In this document: in pieces, positions 3,647 through 64,000 of the stretch
How the letters are laid out: the number at the start of each line of letters is the position of its first letter
How positions within the stretch are numbered: position 1 is the stretch's first letter
Origin: an uncultured Gammaproteobacteria bacterium
Lineage (GTDB): Bacteria; Patescibacteriota; Patescibacteriia; Magasanikbacterales; GWA2-37-8
DNA: 64,000 bases
Reading direction: 5' to 3'
NCBI GenBank assembly: GCA_964641245.1
Contig: CAZXML010000004.1
Span: forward strand, 5,418-69,417
The notes under the pieces: generated by a model
Seen by the model: only the letters and a program-made list of their open reading frames with translations
The model's database searches: none
Told to the model about the DNA's origin: nothing
Program-made: the position numbers and the translations under genes

Positions 3647-4357
3647 ATGTTAACCTACTTTTGGACGAGTTATCTATATCAGCCGGTATTTAACGCGCTA
3701 ATTTGGATTTACCTTAATATCGCCGAGCGTAATTTGGGCTGGTCCGTGGTTTGGCTCACTATTTTTTTACGTATCATTCTTTTACCGCTCACTTTAATTT
3801 CCGAACGCGATGCCGTTAGGCAAGAAAACGTGGAAGAAGAAGCCCGCCATGCGGCCAAAGCGTTTAAGAACGATGCCGTGGCGCAAAAAGAAGAAATCAG
3901 AAAAATAATGAAGAAAAACCGGGTTTCTCCATGGGCCAAGGTCATGTCCATTGGTCTTCAGTTATTGGTCTTAATACTTTTATACCAGGTTTTCGTCCGG
4001 GGTATAACCGGAGACCGGGTAATCAAGTTTTTATATCTGTGGATAGATTTTCCCGGTAAAATGAACGTTGATTTTTACGGTTTCAACATCGGCAACCGCC
4101 ACGACAGTCTTTGGGCCGGAGCAACCGCATTGTATCTTTTCTTTTCAATTTATTTAGGAGAAGGCCCTAGCCGTAAAAAAGACCAGTCCAGAACCACCTT
4201 CATGTTCCTTTTCCCGCTTTTTACCTTTTTGGCCCTGTGGCTATTACCCATGGTAAAATCCCTCTTCATTTTGACTTCCATGATATTTTCTGATACTATT
4301 ACTTTAATCAGAATGATGATTTTCCCCAAGAAAAAAGAGGTTTTAAAAAAGAAATAA
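3647..4357 (+). CDS. yidC: YidC/Oxa1-family membrane protein insertase (short form), tentative
   Basis: Pattern IFLRIILLPLT ... charged linker ... SPWAKVMSIGLQLLVLILLYQ parallels the conserved YidC core (LLPLT ... NPLGGCLPLLIQMPILIALYQ). Multiple transmembrane segments. Confidence 0.45.
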   Translation: MLTYFWTSYLYQPVFNALIWIYLNIAERNLGWSVVWLTIFLRIILLPLTLISERDAVRQENVEEEARHAAKAFKNDAVAQKEEIRKIMKKNRVSPWAKVMSIGLQLLVLILLYQVFVRGITGDRVIKFLYLWIDFPGKMNVDFYGFNIGNRHDSLWAGATALYLFFSIYLGEGPSRKKDQSRTTFMFLFPLFTFLALWLLPMVKSLFILTSMIFSDTITLIRMMIFPKKKEVLKKK

Positions 4358-6348: not shown

Positions 6349-6672
6349 ATGGCACCAGAAAAAGGCGAGGAAGATTTTTTTGGGCAAATAGAACCCAAAG
6401 AAAGCAGGAAAGCAGGCAGAGAAATAGCCGTTAATGTTCCGCTGTTTTCAACGGATAGAACACAAAGTTTTAAAGAATATAGCCGGGTGATAACGGAAGC
6501 GGAAAAAATGGCTCAAAATGCCGATTTAATACAAATGGTTAACGATAAAAAATTGCACTTTACCGTATTATATCGTCTTAGCGATGAGTATGAAATTAAC
6601 GGCCGGCCAGACCCAAAAAATCTAAAAGAAAAAGTTAAAACCGCCATTTTACAGCTAATGTCGCGGATGTAA
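6349..6672 (+). CDS. Hypothetical protein
   Basis: 107-aa ORF immediately after grpE. No recognisable motif. Confidence 0.35.
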   Translation: MAPEKGEEDFFGQIEPKESRKAGREIAVNVPLFSTDRTQSFKEYSRVITEAEKMAQNADLIQMVNDKKLHFTVLYRLSDEYEINGRPDPKNLKEKVKTAILQLMSRM

Positions 6673-49873: not shown

Positions 49874-49962
49874 ATTTGATATTAATACACAGCTACTGGG
49901 GATAAGTCTGTTTGACTAAAGAAAAAACATGAAATTTGTGGTATAATAATGGAGACAGTTAT

Positions 49963-52900
49963 ATGCTAACCTTAGGAAAAAGAAAACTTTTTAAAATTTT
50001 AGAAATATCCTCTATTTTTGTCGGTGTCATCATGGCGCTTTATTATTTTTATCCGGTTTTTGCCGCTCCTCCTACTACTCCATACGCGCCCGGCGAAACC
50101 ACCGATCCCGCTTGTACTCCCGGCAGTACTAATTGTACAGTTTACCCGCCTCTCACCACCACCCTCACCACTTCCACGGCCATTACTATGGCCACATCTG
50201 CTTTACGGTTTGCTTACGACTCTACAAATTATACCGCCCTCACAGTGGCCGCAGATGGCGCGCTCACGGTCAGTTCCACCGGCGGTGTCACCACTACTTT
50301 TGCCAATAAAATTTCGGTTTTAGCCAATTCATATTTCTCCACTATTTCCAGTGGCACCTGGAATGGTAGTGTTATTGGCGTTGCTTATGGCGGCACCAAC
50401 AGTTCCACCATTGGCCCAGCCGGCTCTGTCGCATATTCTAACGCCAGCAGTTACTTGTTTACCGCCGCCGGTACAGCCGGACAAATTTTGCAGGCCAATG
50501 GCACCGGCGCTCCTACTTGGATAAATACCAGCACCATGGGATTTGTTAATCTGCAGGGCGTTACGTCCGGTACGCAACAAACTGGAAATTTTAATATTAG
50601 CGGCACTGGCCTTATCGGCGCCGCTCTGGGCATCAACACCACTAGCCCCATCGCAAGTTTATCAGTGCAAGGAACGGGAACAAAAAACCCTTTCACTATC
50701 GTTTCTTCAACCAATGGGTCAATGTTGACTGTTTTGACGAACGGGAATGTTGGGATTGGCACTTCCACCCCTTCTGAAAAACTTCAGGTGGTGGGAAATA
50801 TTTCGAATGTGATTGATTCTAACACCACTTTTTCATCTTCCATCGCCACTGTAGGCACAAGTCCTTATGATATCTTTGTTTCCGGCCGCTACGCCTACGT
50901 GACAAATTATGGCGGAGGTACCCTTTCAATCGTAGATGTAACCGACCCTTTAAGACCTTCAGAAATCTCAACTGTTAGTGTAGGCACAAGCCCTTATTCG
51001 GTTTATGTCTCCGGTCACTATGCTTATACAGCAAATTATAACGCTGGTACTATTTCCGTCGTTGATGTTTCTAATCACGCTGTTCCTAAAATAGCTGCTA
51101 CTTTTAGTATATCTAAACCTGCGGGAATTTATGTCTCCGGTCGCTATGCTTATGTGACTAATTTTGATTCCAGTACCATTTCAGTTGTAGATGTATCCAA
51201 CCCCCTTAGCCTTGCTTTTGTTGCGAGCACTACCGCAGGAACGAACCCTCTTCAGATTTATGTGCAAGGAAATTATGCGTATGTGGCTAATAGGGGTAGC
51301 AGTTACATCTCAATAATAGATATTTCTAATCCTTCTGCCCCTCGCAACGTTGCCAATCCGGTTGTGGGTATATCCCCTCACGATATACACGTTTCTGGCC
51401 GTTATGCTTATGTTTCAGTATTGGAAAATGATAATTTTGCAGTTGTAGATATTTCTAATCCAAACGTTCCTGTGGTGGTAACTAGCACCCCTGCAAGCAG
51501 TGGACTGGGCGGTTATGCTTTGTACGTTTCTGGCCGTTACGCTTATGTGACCAGGAGCGCTTCAAGCACTTTAGCTGTTATAGATATTTCTAATTCATCC
51601 ACCCCCGTTTTAGCCGCCACAATTCCTGTATCCCCAGGCCCTGGCGGTGTTTATGTTTCCGGTCGCTACGCCTATGTGACAAATTATAGCGGCAGCAGTA
51701 TTACCGTCATCGACATCTCCGGCACCGAGGTCACTTCACTCATCGCCCACAGCGCCGAGGTGGGGAATCTGCAATCCCGAAACGACATTTTTGCCGAAGG
51801 AAATATAATGGCCGGCACTTCGCTGTCGGTTGGTGCTGGAGGTATTATGTCCCAAGGCGCATTGTCTGTCTTTGCTTCTTCTACCGATGCCACATCTTCT
51901 ATTTTCAATGTTTCATCCGCCCAGACATCAAATATATTTAATGTTTTTGCGAATGGAAAAATTGGTATTGGTAGTTCCACTCCGTCAACACTATTGGTCG
52001 TAAATGGAACTTCTACGATGAACGGATTACAGATTTTAAATAGGGGTTCAGCGGCTGTTCCTGCTCTGGCTATTGGCACAGCTACAGATGGTATTTATCA
52101 GCGAACCGCTACCACTTTGAACATTACCACCAATGGCGCGATTACAGCCGAATTTTATAACGGTTCAATATCAACAAACGACTTAAAAGTAAGTGCGATA
52201 TACAATGGAAGTACTGCGGGAAGCAGTGGTGGAGGTGTCATTGATTTAACCACAGTAGGATTAACTCTGGGGATTGATGGGAACGCTGCAATTTTGAATA
52301 TTAAAAATAATGTGGTCGGCATAAATACTACCACCATAAACTCCACCCTCACAGTGCAGGGCACGGATAGCATCAATCCATTTTCTATCCTTTCCTCCAC
52401 CACAGCTTCTCTGCTCACCGTTCTCACCAACGGCAATATTGGCGTCAACTCATCTAGTCCTATTGCAACTTTGGCAGTACAAGGAAATTACGGAACAAAT
52501 CCTTTTTCTATAAACTCCTCAACTGGAGCAACTATGTTAAACGTTCAAACTAATGGAACAGTTAATGTGGGAATGGGAGCTCTTTCTATTAGACACAACA
52601 ACGCTGTTACTAACAACGCAGTTTTTACTGCTGGTTCATCTGGTAGTGGGTACTTCAATGTTTGTAATGACGGCTGGTGTACTGGATTTGGAGGTGACGC
52701 GCCTGTTGCAGTCACCACTGGGTTTCAGCTTTATGGCGCGGCTCCCATCATTTTTGAGGGGAGTACTGACAATTCATTTGAAACTCGTTTGAATGTTGTC
52801 GAACCTACAGCCGACCGAACTGTTCTACTTCAAAATTTAAGCGGGACGGTTGTTATCACTGAATTAACTACCAATAATGTCGGCCTCGGCACCACCACCC

Positions 52901-53940
52901 CGCAAGCAAAACTAACTATCCAAAGCACCAGCTCCAATCCTTTTTCCATCGTAACTTCAACTGCAGGGGCCGAATCTATGTTCATTGTTTTGACGAATGG
53001 GAATGTTGGTATCGGAAGTTCCACCCCTTCCTATAACTTTGTTTCTACTGGTACGGCTGCTTTAGCAAATCTCCCCTCCGGCGCTCTTTCTGATATTCTT
53101 GTTTGCTGGACTACAGACGGACAATTAACCAGGCAAGCCACCAACTGCACTGTTTCATCTGCTCGTTTCAAAGAAAATATCCAATCTCTATCATCGGATA
53201 AACTAATGGAAAAAGTTCAAAAACTAAGAGTGGTTAGTTTTGATTACAAGTCTAATGGACAACCGAGCGAGGGTTTTATCGCCGAAGAAATTGCCCTAAT
53301 AGACCCAATGCTGGTTGTTTATACCGATAGTTACACTCCGGAAGATCTGGCTTTTGAACAGGCTAATTATCCAAGTTCAACCTTATATAAAGACGGTAAA
53401 ATATTAATTCCGCAAACAGTTGATTATTCCCGAATCTCGGTTCTTCTTACCGGCGCATTGCAAGATATAGATGCCAGATTGACCGCTTATGTTGCTTCAG
53501 CAGAGTTAATGTCTTCGGTATTCAGTATTGATGTAGCGGATATTAGCAACGACATGCCAAACTTTGCCACTGTAATTTTGGACAAATTTACTTTGGCTGT
53601 AAAAAATAGCTTAAGAAAATTGGGCCTGCTGATAAAAGATGGCGTGGCCATGGTAAAAGAATTGGTGGCGGATAAAGTGAAGACTAACCAGTTGTGCGTC
53701 GGCCAGACTTGTATAAACGAACAGCAATTGCAAGATATTTTGAGTAAAACTCAAACTCAAGCCACTCCGGTACCTGTCATCCCGAGCGAGGTCGTAGCCG
53801 ACGAGGGATTTTTGTCCACCACAACACAGGATTCTAACGTACCTGACACAACTCCAGCAACTGTCTCTGAAGAAACTCTAAGCTCTACGCTTCCAACCGT
53901 TCCCGATGAATCAGCTGATATAGTCACTTCAACTCCATAG
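49963..53940 (+). CDS. Giant surface protein: LVIVD-repeat beta-propeller, phage-tail-fibre-like G(N)(V/I)GIG(T/S)S(T/S)P repeats, C-terminal S74-type intramolecular chaperone domain
   Basis: TATAAT box at 49942, GGAGA Shine-Dalgarno sequence, then ATG at 49963. About eight SGRYAYVTNY...ISVVDVSNP units. Five LTVLTNGNVGIGTSTPS-like units. C-terminal SSARFKENIQSLSSDKLMEKVQKLRVVSFDYK matches the endosialidase-chaperone consensus. Confidence 0.6.
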   Translation: MLTLGKRKLFKILEISSIFVGVIMALYYFYPVFAAPPTTPYAPGETTDPACTPGSTNCTVYPPLTTTLTTSTAITMATSALRFAYDSTNYTALTVAADGALTVSSTGGVTTTFANKISVLANSYFSTISSGTWNGSVIGVAYGGTNSSTIGPAGSVAYSNASSYLFTAAGTAGQILQANGTGAPTWINTSTMGFVNLQGVTSGTQQTGNFNISGTGLIGAALGINTTSPIASLSVQGTGTKNPFTIVSSTNGSMLTVLTNGNVGIGTSTPSEKLQVVGNISNVIDSNTTFSSSIATVGTSPYDIFVSGRYAYVTNYGGGTLSIVDVTDPLRPSEISTVSVGTSPYSVYVSGHYAYTANYNAGTISVVDVSNHAVPKIAATFSISKPAGIYVSGRYAYVTNFDSSTISVVDVSNPLSLAFVASTTAGTNPLQIYVQGNYAYVANRGSSYISIIDISNPSAPRNVANPVVGISPHDIHVSGRYAYVSVLENDNFAVVDISNPNVPVVVTSTPASSGLGGYALYVSGRYAYVTRSASSTLAVIDISNSSTPVLAATIPVSPGPGGVYVSGRYAYVTNYSGSSITVIDISGTEVTSLIAHSAEVGNLQSRNDIFAEGNIMAGTSLSVGAGGIMSQGALSVFASSTDATSSIFNVSSAQTSNIFNVFANGKIGIGSSTPSTLLVVNGTSTMNGLQILNRGSAAVPALAIGTATDGIYQRTATTLNITTNGAITAEFYNGSISTNDLKVSAIYNGSTAGSSGGGVIDLTTVGLTLGIDGNAAILNIKNNVVGINTTTINSTLTVQGTDSINPFSILSSTTASLLTVLTNGNIGVNSSSPIATLAVQGNYGTNPFSINSSTGATMLNVQTNGTVNVGMGALSIRHNNAVTNNAVFTAGSSGSGYFNVCNDGWCTGFGGDAPVAVTTGFQLYGAAPIIFEGSTDNSFETRLNVVEPTADRTVLLQNLSGTVVITELTTNNVGLGTTTPQAKLTIQSTSSNPFSIVTSTAGAESMFIVLTNGNVGIGSSTPSYNFVSTGTAALANLPSGALSDILVCWTTDGQLTRQATNCTVSSARFKENIQSLSSDKLMEKVQKLRVVSFDYKSNGQPSEGFIAEEIALIDPMLVVYTDSYTPEDLAFEQANYPSSTLYKDGKILIPQTVDYSRISVLLTGALQDIDARLTAYVASAELMSSVFSIDVADISNDMPNFATVILDKFTLAVKNSLRKLGLLIKDGVAMVKELVADKVKTNQLCVGQTCINEQQLQDILSKTQTQATPVPVIPSEVVADEGFLSTTTQDSNVPDTTPATVSEETLSSTLPTVPDESADIVTSTP

Positions 53941-54947: not shown

Positions 54948-57821
54948 ATGTCATTTCTCACTAAAATTTTCGGTGATCCGAACGCCAAAGTAATCCAAAG
55001 CATTCAGCCTATAATTGCCAAAATAAATTCCCTAGAGCCGGAAATGGCCAAATTAAGCATGGCCGATTTGCGCGCCAAAACAGGTGAGTTTAGAACTCGT
55101 TTGGCAAAAAATGAAACCTTGGACGACATTTTGCCCGAGGCTTTTGCCGTCGTCCGCGAAACTTCCAAACGCTTAACCGGTATGCGTCATTTTGATGTGC
55201 AACTAATCGGCGGTGTGGTTTTGCATCGCGGCAGTATTGCCGAAATGGGCACTGGAGAAGGTAAAACTCTGGTGGGAACATTGCCTGTGTACTTAAATGC
55301 TCTGGCCGGCAAGGGTGTGCATGTTGTTACCGTAAACGATTATCTGGCCAAACGCGACGCCGTGTGGATGGGTCAAATTTACGATGCGCTGGGATTAAGC
55401 ATTGGTATTATTCAACAGCAATTAACATCATACAAATACAACGCCAATTCTGTCATTTCGCCCGCCACGTCTGTCATTCCGAGCGAGCGAAGCGACGAGG
55501 AATCTATACCGATGAAAGAAAATAAATCTTTATTAAACGGAATAGATCCCTCGTCGTCTACGGCCTCGCTCGGGATGACAGGTGAGGACCTCTCCGAAGG
55601 CAGCGTCGCCGACAAAGAACGCGACGTTAAAGGAATGTTCAAAGTAGAAGCCGAATATCTGGAACCGTGCGCCCGCCAAGAAGCGTATCGCTGTGATATC
55701 ACTTACGGAACCAACAATGAATTTGGCTTTGATTATTTGCGCGACAACATGGTGCAGAATAAACACGAAATGTCGCAGAGGCCTTTTTATTTTGCGATTG
55801 TGGACGAAGTCGATTCTATTTTAATAGACGAAGCGCGCACTCCGCTTATTATTTCCGCGCCCGCCCAGGAATCTTCCGACAAATATATTAAATTTGCCGC
55901 GCTTGTCCGCCAGTTAAAAGAAAATGAAGATTACAACGTAGACGAAAAAATGCGTTCATCCACTCTTACCGATGTTGGTTTAAATAAAATGGAAAAGTGG
56001 TTGGGGGTAGATAATATTTACGCTGAAGGCGGCATGTCTATGGTTCACCATTTAGAGCAGGCGTTGCGCGCGTACGCGCTATTCAAAAGAGACCGCGATT
56101 ATATTGTGGATAACGGCGAAGTAATAATCGTAGACGAATTTACCGGCCGGAAAATGCCGGGACGTCGTTATAGCGAAGGTTTGCATCAGGCCATAGAAGC
56201 GCAGGAAGGCGTAAAAATTCAACAGGAAAGCCAAACAATGGCTACTATTACGTTTCAAAATTATTTCCGTCTTTACGAAAAACTTTCCGGCATGACCGGA
56301 ACAGCCGTCACCGAAGCGGAAGAATTCGGAAAAATTTATAAATTGGAAGTGGTGGTAATTCCAGCCAACAAAAAAAATCAGCGTCATAATTTACCGGACA
56401 GAATTTACAAAACCGAAGAGATAAAATATAAAGCTATCGCCCAAACCGTAAAAGAACTTCAGGAAAAAGGCCAGCCGGTTTTAATCGGCACCGTGGCCGT
56501 AGACAGAAACGAAGCTCTCTCACTTTATTTGCAAAGAGAGGGGATTGCGCACGAAATTTTAAACGCCAAGAATCACGAACGTGAAGGTGAAATTATTGCT
56601 CAAGCCGGACGCGCCGGAGCGGTCACTTTAGCTACCAATATGGCCGGCCGCGGTGTGGACATTATTTTAGGAGGAAACCCGCCGGATTCTGCCGAAGCCG
56701 AAAAAGTGCGCGCCGCCGGCGGTTTGTTTGTTATCGGTACCGAACGCCACGAAAGCCGTCGCATAGACAATCAGTTGCGCGGTCGGGCCGGCCGTCAGGG
56801 AGATCCGGGTGAATCTCAGTTTTATCTTTCCACCGAAGATGATTTAATGCGTATTTTTGCCGGCGAACGCATCCGTTCGGTAATGGAAACTCTAAAAGTT
56901 CCGGATGATATGCCGATAGAACAAGGAATGATTTCCCGCATTATAGAATCTGCCCAAAAAAAAGTGGAAGGCATTCATTTTGATACCCGCAAACATTTAT
57001 TGGAATATGATGATGTGCTTAATCGCCACCGCGAAGTTATCTACGGTAAACGCCGGGAAATTTTAGACGCGTTTGAAGCGGAGAAAAATAAGACCGTAGC
57101 CGAAGGCGCTAAAACAATGCGCGAAATGATTCTGGAAATGGTGGAGCAGGAAATAGAACAGGTAATTTCTTTTCATACCAACACCGAAGACAGAAAAGAC
57201 TGGAACGTAACCGAAATCATTCAAACCGTCACCACCATATTCCCACTATCCGATGCCGAGAAAAAAACCATCACCGAATTATCCGAAAATAAGCACGAAC
57301 AAAAAATGGAAGATGCGGCCATCAGAACCGGCTTTATTGAATATTTATTAAAACTAGCCAACCAGAAATACGAAACCCTGCTGGAAAAAACCGTGCCTGA
57401 TCCGGAAATGCTGTTAGAAATAGAAAAACAGGTATTACTCCGGGCCATAGATAATTTATGGGTAGAACATTTAGTGGCCGTAGATTATTTACGCACCGGC
57501 ATTGGTTTGCGCGGTTACGGTCAGCACGACCCGCTGGTAGAATACAAAAAAGAAACCTACCGCATGTTCAACGAACTGATGAATCTTATCCAAAAAGAGG
57601 TTGTTTATTTAATTTACAAAGTTAATCTGGGAATTCAATTGGCCCCGTCGGTAATGAACAGCAATGCTTTAAATTTTAGCGGCGCCGCTAAGACGGCTGA
57701 TAGCGAAGAGTATATAGCCAATAGCGGAAAGGAAAAAGATGGCGAAGGAAAAGTTATTGGCCGCAATGACCCGTGTCCGTGTGGTTCTGGAAAGAAATTT
57801 AAGCGCTGCCATGGAGCGTAA
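54948..57821 (+). CDS. secA: Preprotein translocase ATPase SecA, carrying an in-frame palindromic insert in NBD1
   Basis: Walker A GEGKTLV, DITYGTNNEFGFDYLRDNM, DEVDSILIDEARTPLIIS and C-terminal zinc site CPCGSGKKFKRCHG. At 957 aa it is larger than typical because of the insert. Confidence 0.95.
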   Translation: MSFLTKIFGDPNAKVIQSIQPIIAKINSLEPEMAKLSMADLRAKTGEFRTRLAKNETLDDILPEAFAVVRETSKRLTGMRHFDVQLIGGVVLHRGSIAEMGTGEGKTLVGTLPVYLNALAGKGVHVVTVNDYLAKRDAVWMGQIYDALGLSIGIIQQQLTSYKYNANSVISPATSVIPSERSDEESIPMKENKSLLNGIDPSSSTASLGMTGEDLSEGSVADKERDVKGMFKVEAEYLEPCARQEAYRCDITYGTNNEFGFDYLRDNMVQNKHEMSQRPFYFAIVDEVDSILIDEARTPLIISAPAQESSDKYIKFAALVRQLKENEDYNVDEKMRSSTLTDVGLNKMEKWLGVDNIYAEGGMSMVHHLEQALRAYALFKRDRDYIVDNGEVIIVDEFTGRKMPGRRYSEGLHQAIEAQEGVKIQQESQTMATITFQNYFRLYEKLSGMTGTAVTEAEEFGKIYKLEVVVIPANKKNQRHNLPDRIYKTEEIKYKAIAQTVKELQEKGQPVLIGTVAVDRNEALSLYLQREGIAHEILNAKNHEREGEIIAQAGRAGAVTLATNMAGRGVDIILGGNPPDSAEAEKVRAAGGLFVIGTERHESRRIDNQLRGRAGRQGDPGESQFYLSTEDDLMRIFAGERIRSVMETLKVPDDMPIEQGMISRIIESAQKKVEGIHFDTRKHLLEYDDVLNRHREVIYGKRREILDAFEAEKNKTVAEGAKTMREMILEMVEQEIEQVISFHTNTEDRKDWNVTEIIQTVTTIFPLSDAEKKTITELSENKHEQKMEDAAIRTGFIEYLLKLANQKYETLLEKTVPDPEMLLEIEKQVLLRAIDNLWVEHLVAVDYLRTGIGLRGYGQHDPLVEYKKETYRMFNELMNLIQKEVVYLIYKVNLGIQLAPSVMNSNALNFSGAAKTADSEEYIANSGKEKDGEGKVIGRNDPCPCGSGKKFKRCHGA
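55451..55580 (+). mobile_element. Composite palindromic element (two inverted family B units) inside secA
   Basis: TGTCATTCCGAGCGAGCGAAGCGACGAGGAA...[50 bp]...GATCCCTCGTCGTCTACGGCCTCGCTCGGGATGACA, plus an extra TGTCATTTCG at 55451. It is translated in frame. Confidence 0.7.
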
Positions 57822-57880: not shown

Positions 57881-57922
57881 GTGCGTTAAGCCGGTAAAAT
57901 AAAACAGAAAGGAGGGAAACCC

Positions 57923-58036
57923 ATGTTGACTATCGTTGTGGCATTGATCGTTGACGCCATTCTTGCGGCGCTGGTTATGCTGGCTTGGCCGGTGACTTTC
58001 CCGCTGTGGGTTCTTTATCTCACAGCTCGGCAGTAG
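57923..58036 (+). CDS. Possible 37-aa hydrophobic peptide
   Basis: Strong Shine-Dalgarno sequence AAAGGAGGG 7 nt upstream. Single transmembrane helix (MLTIVVALIVDAILAALVMLAWPVTFPLWVLYLTARQ). Followed by a terminator. Confidence 0.3.
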   Translation: MLTIVVALIVDAILAALVMLAWPVTFPLWVLYLTARQ

Positions 58037-58070
58037 GCCTGCAAAGTTCTTTGTAAAGGAAAATAATCAT

Positions 58071-58103
58071 GAGAGCGGGTTTAATACCCGCTCTCTTTTT
58101 TAT
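58071..58103 (+). terminator. Rho-independent terminator
   Basis: GAGAGCGGGT TTAAT ACCCGCTCTC followed by TTTTTTA. Confidence 0.75.
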
Positions 58104-58145
58104 ATTGACCAATCAAGTTATTTAGTTTACAATAAGGACGTAAAT

Positions 58146-58220
58146 TCCCAGGTAGCGCAGCGGTAGCGCAGCTCGCTGTTAACGAGTTGGTCGTCGGTTC
58201 GAATCCGACCCTGGGAGCCA
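58146..58220 (+). tRNA. tRNA-Asn (anticodon GTT), with encoded CCA
   Basis: Manual cloverleaf. Acceptor stem TCCCAGG/CCTGGGA, D-arm GCGCAGCGGTAGCGC, anticodon loop CTGTTAA and T-arm GTCGGTTCGAATCCGAC, ending GCCA. Confidence 0.9.
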
Positions 58221-58413
58221 AATGGAATAGGGCGCAATTTCGGCGACCGTTCGCCAGCCCCTTTTCGCTAAGTAATCGAATTTTTTGTCTTTCAACACAA
58301 AGTTCGAGCCGACATTTTTTAGAAATGTACGGATTTCCGCTAAATCGCCTGTCTGGGTGACTTTTGTTATTTGTAATGGAAAATGATATAATTATAGAAA
58401 TAATTTAATAACT

Positions 58414-58893
58414 ATGAAAATAAACAACACTTTCAAACTCGTCATCGCCATATTCGTCTCTGAGTTTGCCGGCATCATCGGTTCGGTGTTTACCATGCCA
58501 TCTATCACTGGCTGGTACGCCGGTATCGTCAAACCAGCCATTAATCCTCCGGCGTGGATATTTGGACCGGTTTGGACGACGCTGTTTGTGTTTATGGGTA
58601 TCGCGGCGTTCCTAGTCTGGAAGAAAGGTTTAGAGCGTCAGGACGTAAAGATTGCCCTTAGCATCTTTGCTGGCCAGCTAGTCTTGAACACACTTTGGTC
58701 AATTATCTTTTTCGGTTTGCACAGTCCGGGTGGTGCATTGATTGAGATTGTTTTTCTCTGGCTCGCTATTCTCGCCACGATCATTGCCTTTGCGAAAATC
58801 TCCAAACCAGCCGCGTGGTTGCTCTTGCCCTACATCCTTTGGGTCAGCTTTGCCGGGTATCTCAACTATTCGCTCTGGATATTAAACTCATGA
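58414..58893 (+). CDS. tspO: TspO/MBR family tryptophan-rich sensory protein
   Basis: Five transmembrane helices with conserved Trp/Pro pattern ([23 protein letters not shown]). Confidence 0.8.
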
Positions 58894-58906
58894 GAAAAAA
58901 GATTTT

Positions 58907-59269
58907 ATGGAATTAAACAAACTAACTCCCGAAGAAAAGCGAGTGATAATTGACAAGGGCACGGAGGCGCCGTTTACGGGTGGGTATGTGAACAATACCG
59001 CTCATGGCGTGTATGTTTGTCGGCAGTGCAATGCTCCGCTTTATAATTCCAAAGACAAATTTGAAAGCACTTGTGGTTGGCCGAGCTTTGATGATGAGAT
59101 AGATGGTGCGGTGAAGCGCACTCTTGATGCCGATGGAATCAGAACCGAAATTACCTGCGCTCGCTGTGGCGGACATTTGGGACATATATTTAAAGGCGAA
59201 TATCTGACCGACAAAAACATCCGTCACTGCGTCAATTCCATCTCATTAAAATTTATTGAAGGAAAATAA
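58907..59269 (+). CDS. msrB: Peptide-methionine (R)-S-oxide reductase
   Basis: Two CxxC zinc pairs ([18 protein letters not shown]) and the catalytic RxCxN-type region. Confidence 0.9.
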
Positions 59270-59273
59270 TAAT

Positions 59274-59762
59274 ATGTCTAAAAAAATAGTTTTAGCCGGG
59301 GGTTGCTTTTGGGGATTGGAAGATTTGATTAGAAAACAGCCTGGGGCAATAAACACAGAGGTTGGCTATACCGGAGGCGAGGTGCCAAATCCAACTTATG
59401 AAAACCACGAAGGCCATGCCGAAGCGGTTGAGATTGAATATGATGAAAACATAACTTCCTATAAAAAGCTTTTGGATTTTTTCTTTCAAATCCACAATCC
59501 GACTACGTTGAACCAGCAAGGAAATGATGTTGGCACATCTTATCGCTCGGCGATTTTTTATGGAAACGAAGATGAAAGGAAAGAAGCGGAAAATTTTATT
59601 GGCATAGTCAACAAATCCAAACGCTGGCAAGATCGGGTAGTGACTTCTTTGGAGCCTTTGGGGGTATTTTATCCGGCGGAAGATTATCATCAGGATTATT
59701 TACAAAAAAATCCGGGCGGATATACTTGCCACGCCATATATTTTGATAGTTACCTAAAATAA
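59274..59762 (+). CDS. msrA: Peptide-methionine (S)-S-oxide reductase
   Basis: [12 protein letters not shown] active-site motif. Probable start [10 protein letters not shown] at 59274. The track start at 59256 overlaps msrB. Confidence 0.9.
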
Positions 59763-59778
59763 GTAATTTAATAATCCT

Positions 59779-60369
59779 ATGAAAAAAATTATGTACATAA
59801 TACTTTTGGTCATCGTCGCCATACTTCTCGTGTGGACAGCGATTAGTTATTTTTTAAATCGCTCAATAAAAACACCTGAATATACTGTCGTAGAGAAGAG
59901 TGAAGGGTACGAAATACGTTCGTATAAACCATACCTCACAGCTCAAGTTGAAGTATCCGGTACTTATGATGAAGCAATAAGCCAGGGCTTTCGTATTCTG
60001 GCTGATTATATTTTCGGCAATAACACGAAACAGACCGGTATTGCCATGACTGCGCCAGTAGTTGAAACCGGGGATAATAAAAAAAGAATTATTTCATTTG
60101 TTATGCCATTTGAATATACGCTTGAGACGCTTCCGAAACCAAATAATCCTGAAGTGAAGATTGTCCCGCAAAAGGCAAGAAAAGTAGCGGTACTTAGGTT
60201 TTCGTGGTTTAGAAACGCTCTACGTGTCGCAGGTAAAAAACAAGGATTGTTCAAACTGTTAGAACGAGATTCCATTAAACCGAAAGGATTACCTGAATAT
60301 GCCGGATACAATGCGCCATTTACCGCCCCGTGGCTGAATAGAAACGAAGTGATGATTGAGATTGAATAA
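59779..60369 (+). CDS. SOUL/HBP heme-binding family protein, membrane-anchored
   Basis: N-terminal transmembrane helix. YE(I/V)RxY...GFRILADYIFGNN...IAMTAPV pattern typical of the SOUL family. Confidence 0.65.
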   Translation: MKKIMYIILLVIVAILLVWTAISYFLNRSIKTPEYTVVEKSEGYEIRSYKPYLTAQVEVSGTYDEAISQGFRILADYIFGNNTKQTGIAMTAPVVETGDNKKRIISFVMPFEYTLETLPKPNNPEVKIVPQKARKVAVLRFSWFRNALRVAGKKQGLFKLLERDSIKPKGLPEYAGYNAPFTAPWLNRNEVMIEIE

Positions 60370-60374
60370 CAACA

Positions 60375-60416
60375 AAAAACCGCTCATTCAAGAGGCGGTT
60401 TCTTGTTTGATTTTTA
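60375..60416. terminator. Bidirectional rho-independent terminator
   Basis: AAACCGC...GCGGTTT stem followed by CTTGTTTGATTTTT. Lies between convergent genes. Confidence 0.55.
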
Positions 60417-60432
60417 TTCAAATAAAAAAAGC

Positions 60433-60639
60433 TTACTGTTTGGCAAGCTTCATGGACATAGCGGCGAGGTAGACTGCGGCAAGGCCAACAAGGGCGTACA
60501 CGACCCTTGAGAGCACGGACATATCACCGAAGATAGTAGCCACAAGGTCAAATTTTAACAAACCGACTAACCCCCAATTTAAACCGCCGACAATTACCAA
60601 AACCAAAGAGATCCAATCTAAAGCATTTAGTTTGTTCAT
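60433..60639 (-). CDS. DUF378-family small membrane protein
   Basis: ALDWISLVLVIVGGLNWGLVGLLKFDLVATIFG matches the DUF378 signature. Confidence 0.6.
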   Translation of the reverse strand: MNKLNALDWISLVLVIVGGLNWGLVGLLKFDLVATIFGDMSVLSRVVYALVGLAAVYLAAMSMKLAKQ

Positions 60640-60780
60640 AAATTATATTTATTTATTTAAAATTGCTTAGTTTGCGTTTCGACCTTAACGCATTAACATA
60701 ATTATACCACAAATCGCGTAAAAATGTTATACTTAGTGTAGATCATGACTTCAAAAACTAAATTACAAAAATAAAATCGT

Positions 60781-61236
60781 ATGACAGCGCTATTGATTGA
60801 TACGATCGGACTGTTTCTATTCCTCGCCGGTTTTGTGATCGGCCTTGGAGCTGTAACGGTCATAGATATTCACGGCTTTCTTGGACGAAAGTCATCATAC
60901 TGGACCGAAGCTACGACGCGCACACACAAAGTGACAAAACCCATGATCTGGGCCGGCATTATACTTGCCATTATCGGCGGTTTAATTTTCTACCGAGAGC
61001 AAAGCTTTGCCGGCATTCCACTCATCCATGCGGTGATCGCGCTGACACTTATCTTGAACGGCTATTTTCTGTCTTTCAAAGTCAGTCCTTTTTTATTGAA
61101 GCGCGAGAAAGATGGCCTGTCCGGAGAACTCCTGCCTGCTTCCTGGCAAAAGAAAATCATGGCAGGCCTCATTGTCTCCGACATCGGCTGGTGGGGCGGA
61201 CTACTTCTCTTGGTGGTGTATCTTGTAGGCCGATAA
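60781..61236 (+). CDS. Hypothetical integral membrane protein
   Basis: Four transmembrane helices. No motif. Confidence 0.4.
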   Translation: MTALLIDTIGLFLFLAGFVIGLGAVTVIDIHGFLGRKSSYWTEATTRTHKVTKPMIWAGIILAIIGGLIFYREQSFAGIPLIHAVIALTLILNGYFLSFKVSPFLLKREKDGLSGELLPASWQKKIMAGLIVSDIGWWGGLLLLVVYLVGR

Positions 61237-61245
61237 CAAATATTT

Positions 61246-61758
61246 ATGAGAAAAAAGACTGTCAAAGTAAATGATAAATTCCAGAAGAATTACAAATACC
61301 AACTTACCGAACCAATGGGACGCAATTTTTATCCGGACTTCAAGCCGGAGCTCACACCAAAACAGATGCTCGCGCTCGGCGTCTTCGGCGGCAAGTACAT
61401 GACCGATTGCAAAAAGGAATTCCCCAAAGACTGGTTTACGCGAGCCAAACTTTCGCCTGAACATCACGACGATACGCTCAACTTTTTCCATAGGCATGCC
61501 AGCCAGCCACTCAAAGTCTGGCAGGAAAAAGGCTGGATCAACGAAGAACATGACCCTCGCGGCTGGTTCCAGTGGTATTGCCGCTACTATATAGGCAGAC
61601 GGCTCCCGGGCGAAGACGAACGGCAGATCAAGCGTTGGAAAGCCATTCGCCGGCATATATCGCAGATCAAGAAGAATTGCCGGCCAAAAGATTTAACTTG
61701 CCGGCCGACGCAAAGGCAGGCGGTCCTGCACTGGGCATATGACAGCCGGAAGATATGA
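61246..61758 (+). CDS. Hypothetical Trp/Arg-rich protein
   Basis: 170 aa. No motif recognised. Confidence 0.4.
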   Translation: MRKKTVKVNDKFQKNYKYQLTEPMGRNFYPDFKPELTPKQMLALGVFGGKYMTDCKKEFPKDWFTRAKLSPEHHDDTLNFFHRHASQPLKVWQEKGWINEEHDPRGWFQWYCRYYIGRRLPGEDERQIKRWKAIRRHISQIKKNCRPKDLTCRPTQRQAVLHWAYDSRKI

Positions 61759-61998
61759 AGAATGTGAGTGTGTAACGGGGGCGGGCAACTGGTTATTTTT
61801 TGGTGCCGGGATCTTTCTATTTGCCGTATATATCCTTAATTTTTAATATATTAGTTCGAACGTCGTCCGTGACCCCGAGCAAAAATTTTTATAGAAAAAT
61901 TGCCTAAAATAAGGTAATTTTTTTTATTGTTCCTTGTTGGTTTTTGTGGTATAATTAATTTATGGTCGATACACTTAATTTATTTAATTTATAAAAAT

Positions 61999-62667
61999 AT
62001 GAAAAACATCAAAAATAGCACATTGTTTGTGGCGTCCTTAGTAATGGCGTTCACATTTTTTTCTTCAGCCGCCTTTGCCAAGGCAGAAAACATTAATCAA
62101 GCCGATGTCAACGACAGTCAGGCTAGTGTCAATGCCAACCAAGCCAATATTAACGCAAATCAGGCAAAAATAAATGCTACTCAAGCTAAGGTTAACGAAG
62201 ATCAAGCCGATGTGAATGAGAAGCAGGGGAAAAGCAATGAGCTTAGCGGTGAGGAACACCGCAGCGGCGTGGCAACATTTGTTCAGAGTCTTTTAAATGT
62301 GGCCGACAGGGAACGGGGAGGAATCGGCGACCAGGTCAGAGAAATTGCTAACGCTCAGAATGACAGCAAGGAAGCTATAGCTGATGCAATTGATGCAGTT
62401 AAAAACAGAAGCGGCCTTAAAACATTTTTTATCGGGACTGATTATAAAAATATCGGTCAATTACGAAGCGAGATGGTAAAAACTGAGAATCAAATTAAAC
62501 AGCTAACTGAATTGTTGGGCCAAATGACAGTCGCCGAAGATAAAACAAGTCTTCAGGCGCAAATTCAATCCTTAGAACAAGGACAGCAGAAAATTAATGA
62601 TTTTGTAAAAGTAAACGAAGATAAATTTAGTCTTTTTGGATGGTTTGTGAAGTTGTTCAATAAATAA
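61999..62667 (+). CDS. Secreted protein with tandem 7-residue (21-bp) repeats
   Basis: Signal peptide (MKNIKNSTLFVASLVMAFTFFSSAAFA). Repeats (A/D)(N/D)QA(N/D)(V/I)N occur six times at 62095-62225. The track start at 61927 is probably too far upstream. Confidence 0.5.
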   Translation: MKNIKNSTLFVASLVMAFTFFSSAAFAKAENINQADVNDSQASVNANQANINANQAKINATQAKVNEDQADVNEKQGKSNELSGEEHRSGVATFVQSLLNVADRERGGIGDQVREIANAQNDSKEAIADAIDAVKNRSGLKTFFIGTDYKNIGQLRSEMVKTENQIKQLTELLGQMTVAEDKTSLQAQIQSLEQGQQKINDFVKVNEDKFSLFGWFVKLFNK

Positions 62668-62688
62668 AGCAAAAAGTAAATCTAAGAT

Positions 62689-62722
62689 AAACGGAGAACA
62701 ATTGGTTCTCCGTTTATTTTTA
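62689..62722 (+). terminator. Rho-independent terminator
   Basis: AAACGGAGAAC AATT GGTTCTCCGTTT followed by ATTTTTAA. Confidence 0.75.
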
Positions 62723-62756
62723 ATTCGGAAAGATTTGTAGATGGCATTTTTTTAAA

Positions 62757-63440
62757 AATTAAAAAGGCCCCGGCGAATGCGGGGCCTGTAGGCGGGGCGG
62801 GCGGGAAAGAGCGGGGGTGTGGCGGGGTGAGCTGTGACTTACTGGCCGCAGCCCGGGTGGACGACGTGGATGGTCTGCGTCACCGAGAACAGCAGATTCG
62901 CGGTGGCGTTGTTGCCCTTGACCGTACCGGTGAGAGTCACCGTATGGTCGCCGGCGCCGAGATCGGCTCCGACGGGATCCATCAGCGCGGCAGCGAGAGC
63001 GGAACCGTCCGCGCCGCCGTTGTCGTTGCCGGCGAACCAATCCGTGTTGAGGATCGTCCGCGCGTCGCCATCCGTGAGCAACGAGGTGTTTCCGTTCGAA
63101 CCGGCATTGGTCGTGTAGGCGAAGTCGATCGGGTAGACGACGGTTGAAGTAGCCGGAATGGCAACTGTGCCGTCGACTGACACCGCCAAATTCACCACGC
63201 GGCTCACCATGACCGGAAGTCCGGTCGTAGGATCGGTGCCGGGCTCCTCGAGCGAGAACGAGTACTTCCTCGGCCAGTTGGCCTTGCTCACAGCGGACTC
63301 GCCGGCGATGAGCGCCGAAATGTCCACATGAGCCGTCTCGCCGTCGCTGGTTTCACTCACCATCTCCCAGGCCGTGAATGGCCCGACAGTGGCAGTGTCC
63401 GGGTTCGGCGCGACTGCGTAGGTGTTCTGTCAAGGCTTGG
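62757..63440. other. Compositionally foreign GC-rich island (about 65% GC by eye)
   Basis: Abrupt shift from AT-rich flanks. Bounded on the left by hairpin GGCCCCG GCGAATG CGGGGCC (62767-62790), with an A-run on the plus strand acting as a minus-strand terminator. Confidence 0.6.
62839..63363 (-). CDS. Hypothetical Gly/Thr/Ala-rich protein encoded in the GC-rich island (possibly a fragment)
   Basis: 174-aa minus-strand ORF with high-GC codon usage (third positions mostly G/C). Overlapping ORFs in other frames are typical high-GC artefacts. Confidence 0.3.
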   Translation of the reverse strand: MVSETSDGETAHVDISALIAGESAVSKANWPRKYSFSLEEPGTDPTTGLPVMVSRVVNLAVSVDGTVAIPATSTVVYPIDFAYTTNAGSNGNTSLLTDGDARTILNTDWFAGNDNGGADGSALAAALMDPVGADLGAGDHTVTLTGTVKGNNATANLLFSVTQTIHVVHPGCGQ

Positions 63441-63710
63441 CCTGTATAAAAACACATTGCAAAAAGCTTTGTTTAGTGATATAGTTAAATTTACAGTCGA
63501 ACTCATTTCGCTTATATGAGCTTCGTCTCATATATTTTCATTCATTCGTCCCGACTTAGTTGGGATATAATCTATTTATCGTATGGCAAAAAGACCCACA
63601 GGCTACATAAAAAGAACAAAGTCAAAGCATTCTCCAAAAACAAAAAAGCGTTTGGAAGTAAAAAGACAAATGCTTGCCAAAAAAGCTTCTAAAAAAAGAC
63701 GTTAGTAAGC

Positions 63711-64000
63711 TTATTCTATCTTGATAATTTTATAGGCGACTTCATGGTCGCCTATTTTAATTTTTATGTTTTCGCCGATTTTACGGCCAATCAGCGCCAT
63801 GCCAATAGGGGAGCTGTAGGAAATAATTCCTTTGTGCGGATTGGTTTCCGAAGAACCGAGGATTTGATATGTTTTTTGCTTGCCCGCACTTTCCACAGTC
63901 ACCTTATGACCCAGTTGAACCGTGTCAATTTGTTTTTGCGGGCTGATGATGACCGCGTGTTTGAGTTGGTTTTCTGTTTTGGTAATAGCGTCATTAATTC
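63711..64000 (-). CDS. greA: Transcription elongation factor GreA, C-terminal part (N-terminus beyond window)
   Basis: ISYSSPIGMALIGRKIGENIKIKIGDHEVAYKIIKIE matches the GreA FKBP-like C-terminal domain. The minus-strand frame stays open to the window end. Confidence 0.7.
   Translation of the reverse strand, partial: INDAITKTENQLKHAVIISPQKQIDTVQLGHKVTVESAGKQKTYQILGSSETNPHKGIISYSSPIGMALIGRKIGENIKIKIGDHEVAYKIIKIE

Follow-up and report, generated by a model that had tools for sequence, protein, structure and literature searches.

Horizontally acquired gene fragments and pseudogenes in bacterial intergenic DNA are marked by an abrupt switch in composition, homology to genes of unrelated taxa and truncation, and also by lost expression signals and by leaving the resident genes undisturbed. 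We find the same features in a short island of high G+C content (GC) near the right end of the window analysed here, that is, the whole 64,000-nt stretch of the metagenomic contig CAZXML010000004.1, and the island is a new instance of this known kind, a compositionally atypical, horizontally acquired gene fragment. It differs from the known alien fragments in that the recipient has a streamlined genome of the Candidate Phyla Radiation (CPR), for which recent transfers from other phyla are reported to be rare (PMC12455944), and in that the island, at 0.66 kb, is very small, wholly unameliorated and associated with no mobile-element gene. The explanation we favour, with a probability of roughly 0.7, is a genuine and recent acquisition of ~0.66 kb of foreign chromosomal DNA, an inert gene fragment that entered by uptake and illegitimate integration.

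Several other described systems invite comparison. Insertion sequences, transposons and miniature inverted-repeat transposable elements have terminal inverted repeats, a target duplication or a transposase, none of which was found for the island. An integron gene cassette is not matched either, the island's open reading frame (ORF) being truncated and its hairpin a simple G+C stem with a T tail, with no integrase and no array; nor is phage or plasmid cargo, there being no relatives in plasmids, phages, IMG/VR, PHROG or BFVD. With tRNA-targeted genomic islands it shares a position at the edge of a segment that starts at a tRNA-Asn gene, and a related genome (L084) has a true duplication of the tRNA end, whereas the window has neither a duplicated attachment (att) site nor an integrase, and its tRNA lies 4.5 kb from the island. 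Illegitimate or homology-facilitated illegitimate recombination during natural transformation is described in Acinetobacter and Streptococcus. The island resembles such events as a sub-kilobase, non-homologous insert without site-specific machinery, in a phylum with com genes and one experimentally transformable member (PMC10633639); in contrast to them, any homologous anchor or junction microhomology would be hypothetical here, and competence of this organism is putative.

A truncated foreign gene and its terminator

Over positions 62757-63436 the GC is 0.643, while the other 680-bp windows of the 64 kb have a mean of 0.425 (standard deviation 0.034, maximum 0.522; z = 6.5), in good agreement with the first-pass annotation of this DNA, which had described an island of about 65% GC in a genome of about 40%. 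That annotation had also proposed a tetranucleotide comparison with the rest of the contig; when run, it gave a strand-symmetric L1 distance between the island and the rest of the window of 0.81, against 0.375 +/- 0.045 (maximum 0.54) for background pieces (z = 9.8), and nowhere else in the 64 kb is there a stretch of comparable composition. Both edges are abrupt, with 30-bp GC rising from 0.37 to 0.80 between 62750 and 62770 on the left and falling from 0.67 to 0.33 between 63400 and 63440 on the right. The 174-aa minus-strand ORF reported earlier as rich in Gly, Thr and Ala, with high-GC third positions, is indeed present (T 12.1%, A 12.1%, G 10.9%, V 10.3%), and its GC at third codon positions (GC3) is 0.81, against 0.27-0.61 in six recipient genes examined near the island. 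The many overlapping ORFs noted at the same time pile up because in three of the six frames no more than two stops interrupt 226 codons. Rfam covariance models gave no match in the island, the sole match in the window at the gathering threshold being the tRNA-Asn at 58146. The features of the island are as follows, the coding sequence and untranslated region being named from their alignment and position.

62757 to 63436, no strand: high-GC island as bounded by GC, tetranucleotides and the fine-scale 30-bp profile
62765 to 63424 (approximate, each junction +/- ~10 nt): donor-derived core
62839 to 63429, minus: 5'-truncated coding sequence, 196 codons and stop, equivalent to family residues ~141-336 of 338
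62839 to 63363, minus: 174-aa ORF from an internal ATG, in the ORF list and also a gene call of the Joint Genome Institute (JGI)
63430 to 63432, minus: in-frame TGA at the right junction, the 5' limit of the open frame, from translation and alignment
62788 to 62838, minus: 3' untranslated region of the foreign gene, G+C-rich, between stop codon and hairpin
62765 to 62787, minus: intrinsic-terminator hairpin AGGCCCCGCATTCGCCGGGGCCT from the terminator scan, followed by TTTTTAATTTT (62764-62754)

The ATG at 63363 is internal to a longer frame, which remains open for 22 further codons up to the TGA at 63430-63432, the right edge of the island. Homology to the donor family described below stops at about 63423, likewise near the island edge, where the translation reads TYAVAP...VGPFTAW. 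Since the frame is open to the edge and homology starts there, we read the coding sequence as a 5'-truncated gene. At its other end, 51 nt past the stop codon, lies a hairpin of eight pairs (seven of them G-C) with a 7-nt loop and the tail TTTTTAATTTT; as a G+C stem-loop followed by a T run and placed 3' of a stop codon, it has the makings of an intrinsic (Rho-independent) terminator. This hairpin had been seen in the first-pass annotation, which placed it at 62767-62790 and not at the 62765-62787 found here. Judged from its sequence, then, the island consists of a 5'-truncated gene, its 51-nt 3' untranslated region and its own terminator. Two possibilities raised earlier, a recent horizontal fragment from a high-GC donor and a captured gene fragment, thus come down to one and the same thing, the ORF being the 3' part of a gene that has full-length relatives on high-GC contigs; that the ORF is cut at the island edge, and that the hairpin is the donor gene's own terminator, go beyond what had been proposed.

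Donor family and fate of the fragment

A search of 5.8 billion proteins with the 196-residue translation identified 47 relatives besides itself, with E-values from 1.7e-65 upward, to ~1e-15. Full-length members have 300-345 residues (~330) and hydrophobic N-terminal signal peptides, and the fragment aligns to their C-terminal ~60% only. The nearest relative, P0002 (phmmer E-value 1.7e-65), is 75% identical in amino acids and 77% in nucleotides; its gene lies on a 1.1-kb contig of 66% GC, ends with PGCGQ and a stop codon as in the island, and has a G+C-rich hairpin and then a T-rich stretch further 3' (L002 862-900). Only one member comes from a named organism, the hypothetical protein P0022 of the betaproteobacterium Cupriavidus necator (53% identity). 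Over the C-terminal domain, identity to ten aligned relatives (alignment A1) ranges from 46% to 76%, and the fragment keeps the motifs TNAGSNG, GDARTILN, GNDNGGADG and TGTVKG and the terminal PGCG with its cysteine, as well as all 7 invariant columns of alignment A3. Of the 39 family columns with a conservation of at least 90% it keeps 38, a score inside the range of bona fide members, and its coding sequence is free of frameshifts and internal stops.

A confident AlphaFold2 model of the C. necator protein, built on a 36-sequence alignment (mean predicted local distance difference test score 88.6), has two beta-rich domains; in this model the fragment begins within the final strand of domain 1, and domain 2, the C-terminal beta-sandwich, is wholly kept. 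The fragment is thus predicted to be the C-terminal part of a secreted protein with two beta-sandwich domains. It has the C-terminal domain, the motifs and the PGCG cysteine in common with this family of ~330-aa secreted proteins, for which there is no Pfam model; yet it lacks both the signal peptide and the N-terminal domain (about residues 1-148 of P0022), and for that reason we do not regard it as a member gene of the family. The family had no significant match in Pfam, PHROG, PDB sequences, PDB folds or viral folds (BFVD), and it had weak adhesin-like fold matches. As far as this evidence reaches, "secreted, adhesin-like beta-sandwich protein" is a plausible description of the donor product, so that the earlier guess of a surface protein is made plausible by the signal peptide, the two predicted domains and the weak adhesin-like folds, and is not thereby demonstrated. 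In a tblastn search, none of 72,556 plasmids and 50,697 phages matched the family, and IMG/VR contained no relative of the family and no exact match to the junctions.

Two short homologs raised the idea of a stand-alone C-terminal module, which we rejected, as P0040 and P0044 are frameshift-broken calls on contigs of 53-56% GC. The contigs on which P0044 and P0040 lie (L168 5001-5369 and L169 5001-5579, respectively) are 55-58 kb long and carry many small ORFs without a Pfam match; the central part of P0040 is scrambled when set against the family consensus, and upstream of a stop the sequence goes on in a family-like manner. Both short members look like frameshift errors of long-read assemblies and not like genuine short proteins.

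As for the fate of the fragment in its new location, the 174-aa ORF has no signal peptide, a scan of the minus strand upstream of it found no promoter-like site, and its sole Shine-Dalgarno-like motif, GGGAG, abuts the ATG without a spacer. Because a promoter-like site, a usable ribosome-binding-site spacing and a signal peptide are all missing, we expect the fragment to be, most likely, inert. The opposite view would be that the gene was domesticated, the 174-aa ORF being expressed and its C-terminal domain serving the CPR bacterium, and such a view could draw on the completeness and near-perfect conservation of that domain, on its intact frame, on the in-frame ATG close to the domain boundary and on the retention of the gene's terminator. 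We consider it extremely unlikely. Besides the missing promoter-like site and the misplaced Shine-Dalgarno-like motif, a domain that is normally secreted would, with its signal peptide lost, stay in the cytoplasm; the GC3 of 0.81 betrays no adaptation to the recipient's codon usage; family homology runs 5' past the ATG as far as the cut, as in an accidental truncation; none of 160 related loci carries the fragment; and an open frame of this length is unremarkable in DNA of 65% GC, three of the six frames here having no more than 2 stops. We suggest that annotations flag the 174-aa "hypothetical protein" as a pseudogene fragment.

The recipient chromosome and the reality of the join

The surroundings of the island are those of a bacterial chromosome. 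The following recipient features bear on the insertion site.

61999 to 62667, plus: left-flank gene for a 222-aa signal-peptide protein with heptad-like repeats
62687 to 62717, minus-strand scan match (arms 62679-62699 and 62705-62725): inverted repeat or hairpin just 3' of the left-flank gene
63457 to 63485, plus: promoter-like site TTGCAA, 17-nt spacer, TATAGT with extended TG, upstream of the basic ORF
63583 to 63705, plus: 40-aa highly basic ORF, next to greA also in close relatives
63711 to 64000, minus: 3' part of greA, which runs off the window; synteny anchor
58146 to 58220, plus: tRNA-Asn(GTT)

GreA, encoded on the right flank, shares 53-82% identity with the GreA proteins of metagenome-assembled genomes labelled Patescibacteria, Parcubacteria or Candidatus Magasanikbacteria, and the window is otherwise chromosomal in content (DnaK/DnaJ, CTP synthase, RecJ, LepA, MurJ, RNase J, RsmH and SecA); by these protein matches, the recipient is assigned to Candidatus Magasanikbacteria (Patescibacteria/CPR). 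The hairpin at 62687-62717 was scored on the minus strand only; read on the plus strand it is followed by TTTTTAATT, and it is probably the terminator of the left-flank gene. An AT-rich spacer of ~47 nt separates it from the island, which interrupts no recipient gene and sits in AT-rich spacer DNA between this apparent terminator and the recipient promoter. The basic ORF (MAKRPTGYIKRTKSKHSPKTKKRLEVKRQMLAKKASKKRR) converges on greA across a 5-nt gap, and the pair is syntenic in the closest relatives, L003 and L084; the identity of the basic protein is 84-90% in L003/L083 and L084, and 71% in L088. No Pfam model matches this protein, which might bind nucleic acids or associate with the ribosome as a small protein.

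Two other genes of the window deserve mention in their own right. The 222-aa left-flank protein contains degenerate 21-nt (7-aa) tandem repeats (NQADVND / NQANINA / NQAKINA / TQAKVNE / DQADVNE) at 62096-62227, and among ~160 related loci its gene was seen only in this population. Further to the left, 49936-53940 on the plus strand encodes a 1334-aa protein with LVIVD repeats, a beta-propeller and a Peptidase_S74 (endosialidase chaperone) domain; the latter is typical of phage tail fibres and occurs here in a large CPR protein, presumably a surface protein.

An abrupt switch in composition within a metagenomic contig could also be produced by the assembly, and a chimeric join had been listed as an option in the first-pass annotation: a mis-join or mis-filled gap might have placed reads of high GC in a CPR contig. 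That the sequence is metagenomic, that the composition is fully donor-like without any amelioration and that the piece is functionless would all fit such an error. The join is found in more than one assembly. The 43-kb JGI contig Ga0136847_12270859 has an identical island, and only 3 of 11,162 flanking positions differ from the window (over these 11.2 kb, positions 55156, 61043 and 61630 only); it begins ~34.8 kb further right than the window. Given these single-nucleotide polymorphisms (SNPs) and the different start, the JGI contig is a separate assembly from the window, and the two are not copies of each other. A third contig, SRR6155503_292416 from Logan, corresponds to window positions 61473-63237 with 0 mismatches and spans the left junction. 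The variant at 61630 alters a 170-aa protein: the window allele is in the Logan contig and in runs SRR6155503 and SRR6155509, and the JGI contig differs. At least two strain variants both carry the island.

The left junction is thus present in three assemblies made by different pipelines, among them a contig that Logan assembled from a single run; the right junction is present in two (the window and the JGI contig). A 34-aa ORF that spans a junction is present on the JGI contig as well, and a 49-aa ORF at the right junction is on record in no further assembly. A chimera would, moreover, need two mis-joins 680 bp apart, the second leading back to the same genome and to the same spacer; the junctions are free of N gaps, and they lie between the recipient's hairpin and its promoter-like site with the recipient's genes intact. 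The two flanks also belong to one conserved neighbourhood: in the more distant relative L036, greA lies within 2.5 kb of homologs of the left-flank genes p170 (87%) and SOUL (83%), and that neighbourhood contains no high-GC insert, its GC never exceeding 0.52. What favours an artefact is that all of the carrying assemblies could stem from related samples (JGI 3300010391 and the SRR61555xx runs), on which a literature search by sample and run accessions found no paper. Because the join recurs in non-identical assemblies and the flanks belong together, assembly chimerism is, as judged from assembled contigs, unlikely, indeed very unlikely, with a small residual doubt; of the options listed originally, this is the one that is disfavoured.

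The tRNA-Asn to greA interval and the route of entry

The island lies at the far end of what appears from comparison with relatives to be a variable segment, at 58.2-63.5 kb; we call it variable because the tRNA-Asn is 5.36 kb from the basic ORF in the window and ~280 nt from it in the relative L084. The segment 58221-63582 encodes TspO, MsrB, MsrA, a SOUL haem-binding protein, DUF378 and three hypothetical proteins, all absent between the same landmarks of L084; it may represent an older intra-CPR genomic island with an oxidative-stress theme, for which no att repeat was found. At this position L084, a contig from Hainich groundwater, has (3714-3954, minus strand) the tRNA-Asn, 148 bp of 71% GC and an exact 19-20-nt repeat of the tRNA 3' end GATCCCCACCCTCGGAGCG, directly upstream of the basic ORF and greA, an arrangement suggestive of an att-type duplication that encloses a very small high-GC insert. 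In L003, a 58-nt, 98% complementary, G+C-rich inverted repeat (2849-2906 and 6592-6649) bounds ~3.7 kb that begins ~125 nt upstream of the basic ORF, where the window has its island; the enclosed ORFs resemble, by sequence, a LexA/S24-DNA-methyltransferase fusion, a zinc-finger/HNH-like protein and an XRE-type regulator.

On the other side of greA, four related genomes (39-42% GC) have as their directly downstream gene a sharply delimited island of 60-70% GC:

L015 6644-7598 (the same as L099 5644-6598): encodes a 258-aa ORF
L010 6707-7559: encodes a 248-aa ORF
L017 6695-7053: shares with L020 a different, membrane-anchored ORF of ~175 aa
L020 6667-7085: as L017

The ORFs of these islands fall into two families unrelated to each other, and one family is an orphan: the L015 and L010 ORFs are 41% identical to each other, lack a Pfam match and have one homolog among 5.8 billion proteins. 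A common origin of the relatives' high-GC islands with that of the window was considered and rejected, as none is related to it. A stretch of about 200 nt just 3' of the high-GC ORFs (L010 7470-7677 and L015 7492-7698) is 86-87% identical between the two species, whose ORFs are only 41% identical in amino acids, and this ~190-200-nt segment was found at no other locus and has no Rfam match.

Because relatives carry differing insertions next to greA, we regard this interval as plastic in the clade, and a larger insertion could have left the island behind as its remnant. According to this alternative a larger element integrated at the tRNA-Asn/greA hotspot and was then deleted down to its 0.66-kb end. 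The L084 insert, bracketed by the classic att signature of a duplicated tRNA 3' end, the L003 element within its 58-nt inverted repeat, the placement of the island at the far end of the 5.36-kb segment and the high-GC islands downstream of greA in L010, L015, L017 and L020 all speak for it. CPR genomes are also streamlined, which implies a deletion bias. In the window, however, the 3' end of the tRNA-Asn (GAATCCGACCCTGGGAGCC) occurs once only at up to 3 mismatches, and no tRNA k-mer of 10 nt or more recurs in 58221-63700. Neither an integrase nor a transposase nor a phage gene lies within +/-10 kb according to the Pfam labels of the genes on the JGI contig, and a Pfam scan of 20 of the 35 window ORFs of at least 200 aa revealed no integrase or recombinase. 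The genes between the tRNA and the island are recipient-like in composition and have homologs in other Magasanikbacteria, and the pristine coding sequence of the fragment leaves little time for extensive decay. We consider such a relic unlikely; it differs in history only from an acquisition by uptake and illegitimate integration, and the two agree on the present nature of the island.

Uptake followed by illegitimate joining is the route that we infer. A search for repeats in 57900-63800 found no inverted or direct repeat pairing the ends of the island, its sole flanking repeat being the 6-nt TAAAAA, which is at chance level in AT-rich DNA; with no mobile-element signature and no phage or plasmid relatives, homology-independent integration of chromosomal DNA remains. 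That the transfer was recent is suggested by the donor-like composition together with the intact coding sequence. In the sequence of events we propose, DNA of a high-GC bacterium, environmental or possibly from a host cell, would have been taken up through the com/type IV pilus machinery and joined without homology (by an illegitimate or microhomology-mediated process) at a break in the AT-rich spacer. The fragment would have been captured at its present length or soon trimmed by deletion; having lost its promoter, start codon, signal peptide and first domain, it would now be an inert pseudogene fragment, eventually to be deleted. The com genes are conserved across CPR phyla, with natural transformation shown in Saccharibacteria (PMC10633639), and competence has been proposed as a route of horizontal gene transfer (HGT) into groundwater Patescibacteria, for which recent transfers between phyla are described as rare or overlooked (PMC12455944).

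Several points weigh against this explanation. The three assemblies with the join may share one sampling campaign, even overlapping libraries, and the right junction is in two of them only. In the bacteria for which it has been measured, transformation seldom leads to homology-independent integration, and no competence genes of this organism were seen in the available DNA. The best match to the fragment is only 75% identical in amino acids. In the search for an empty site, contig scans with GreA gave no contig of the same species (best 82%), nor the window's own, and in the alignment with L003 homology is lost ~30 nt upstream of the basic ORF. The plasticity of the locus tempers a reading of random insertion, and the sequence itself does not demonstrate a route of uptake and joining.

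If genuine, as we favour, the island is a clean, datable example of a streamlined Patescibacteria genome that has very recently received sub-kilobase DNA from a distant high-GC bacterium without mobile-element machinery, the pattern expected from natural competence combined with illegitimate recombination. Recent, inter-phylum and fragmentary events of this sort are the class that gene-based HGT surveys say they largely miss (PMC12455944). More speculatively, the fragment might preserve DNA that this CPR bacterium, as an episymbiont or parasite, acquired from its own high-GC host or prey cell, and the tRNA-Asn to greA interval a recurrent landing pad in Magasanikbacteria. We hold this combined idea to be unlikely; its basis is that three lineages have three different insertions there, and that several others have a gene of 60-70% GC downstream of greA. 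Were it true, stray fragments would be natural recorders of host identity for uncultured CPR lineages. Should the donor turn up in the same samples, it may indicate the organism on which this CPR bacterium lives.

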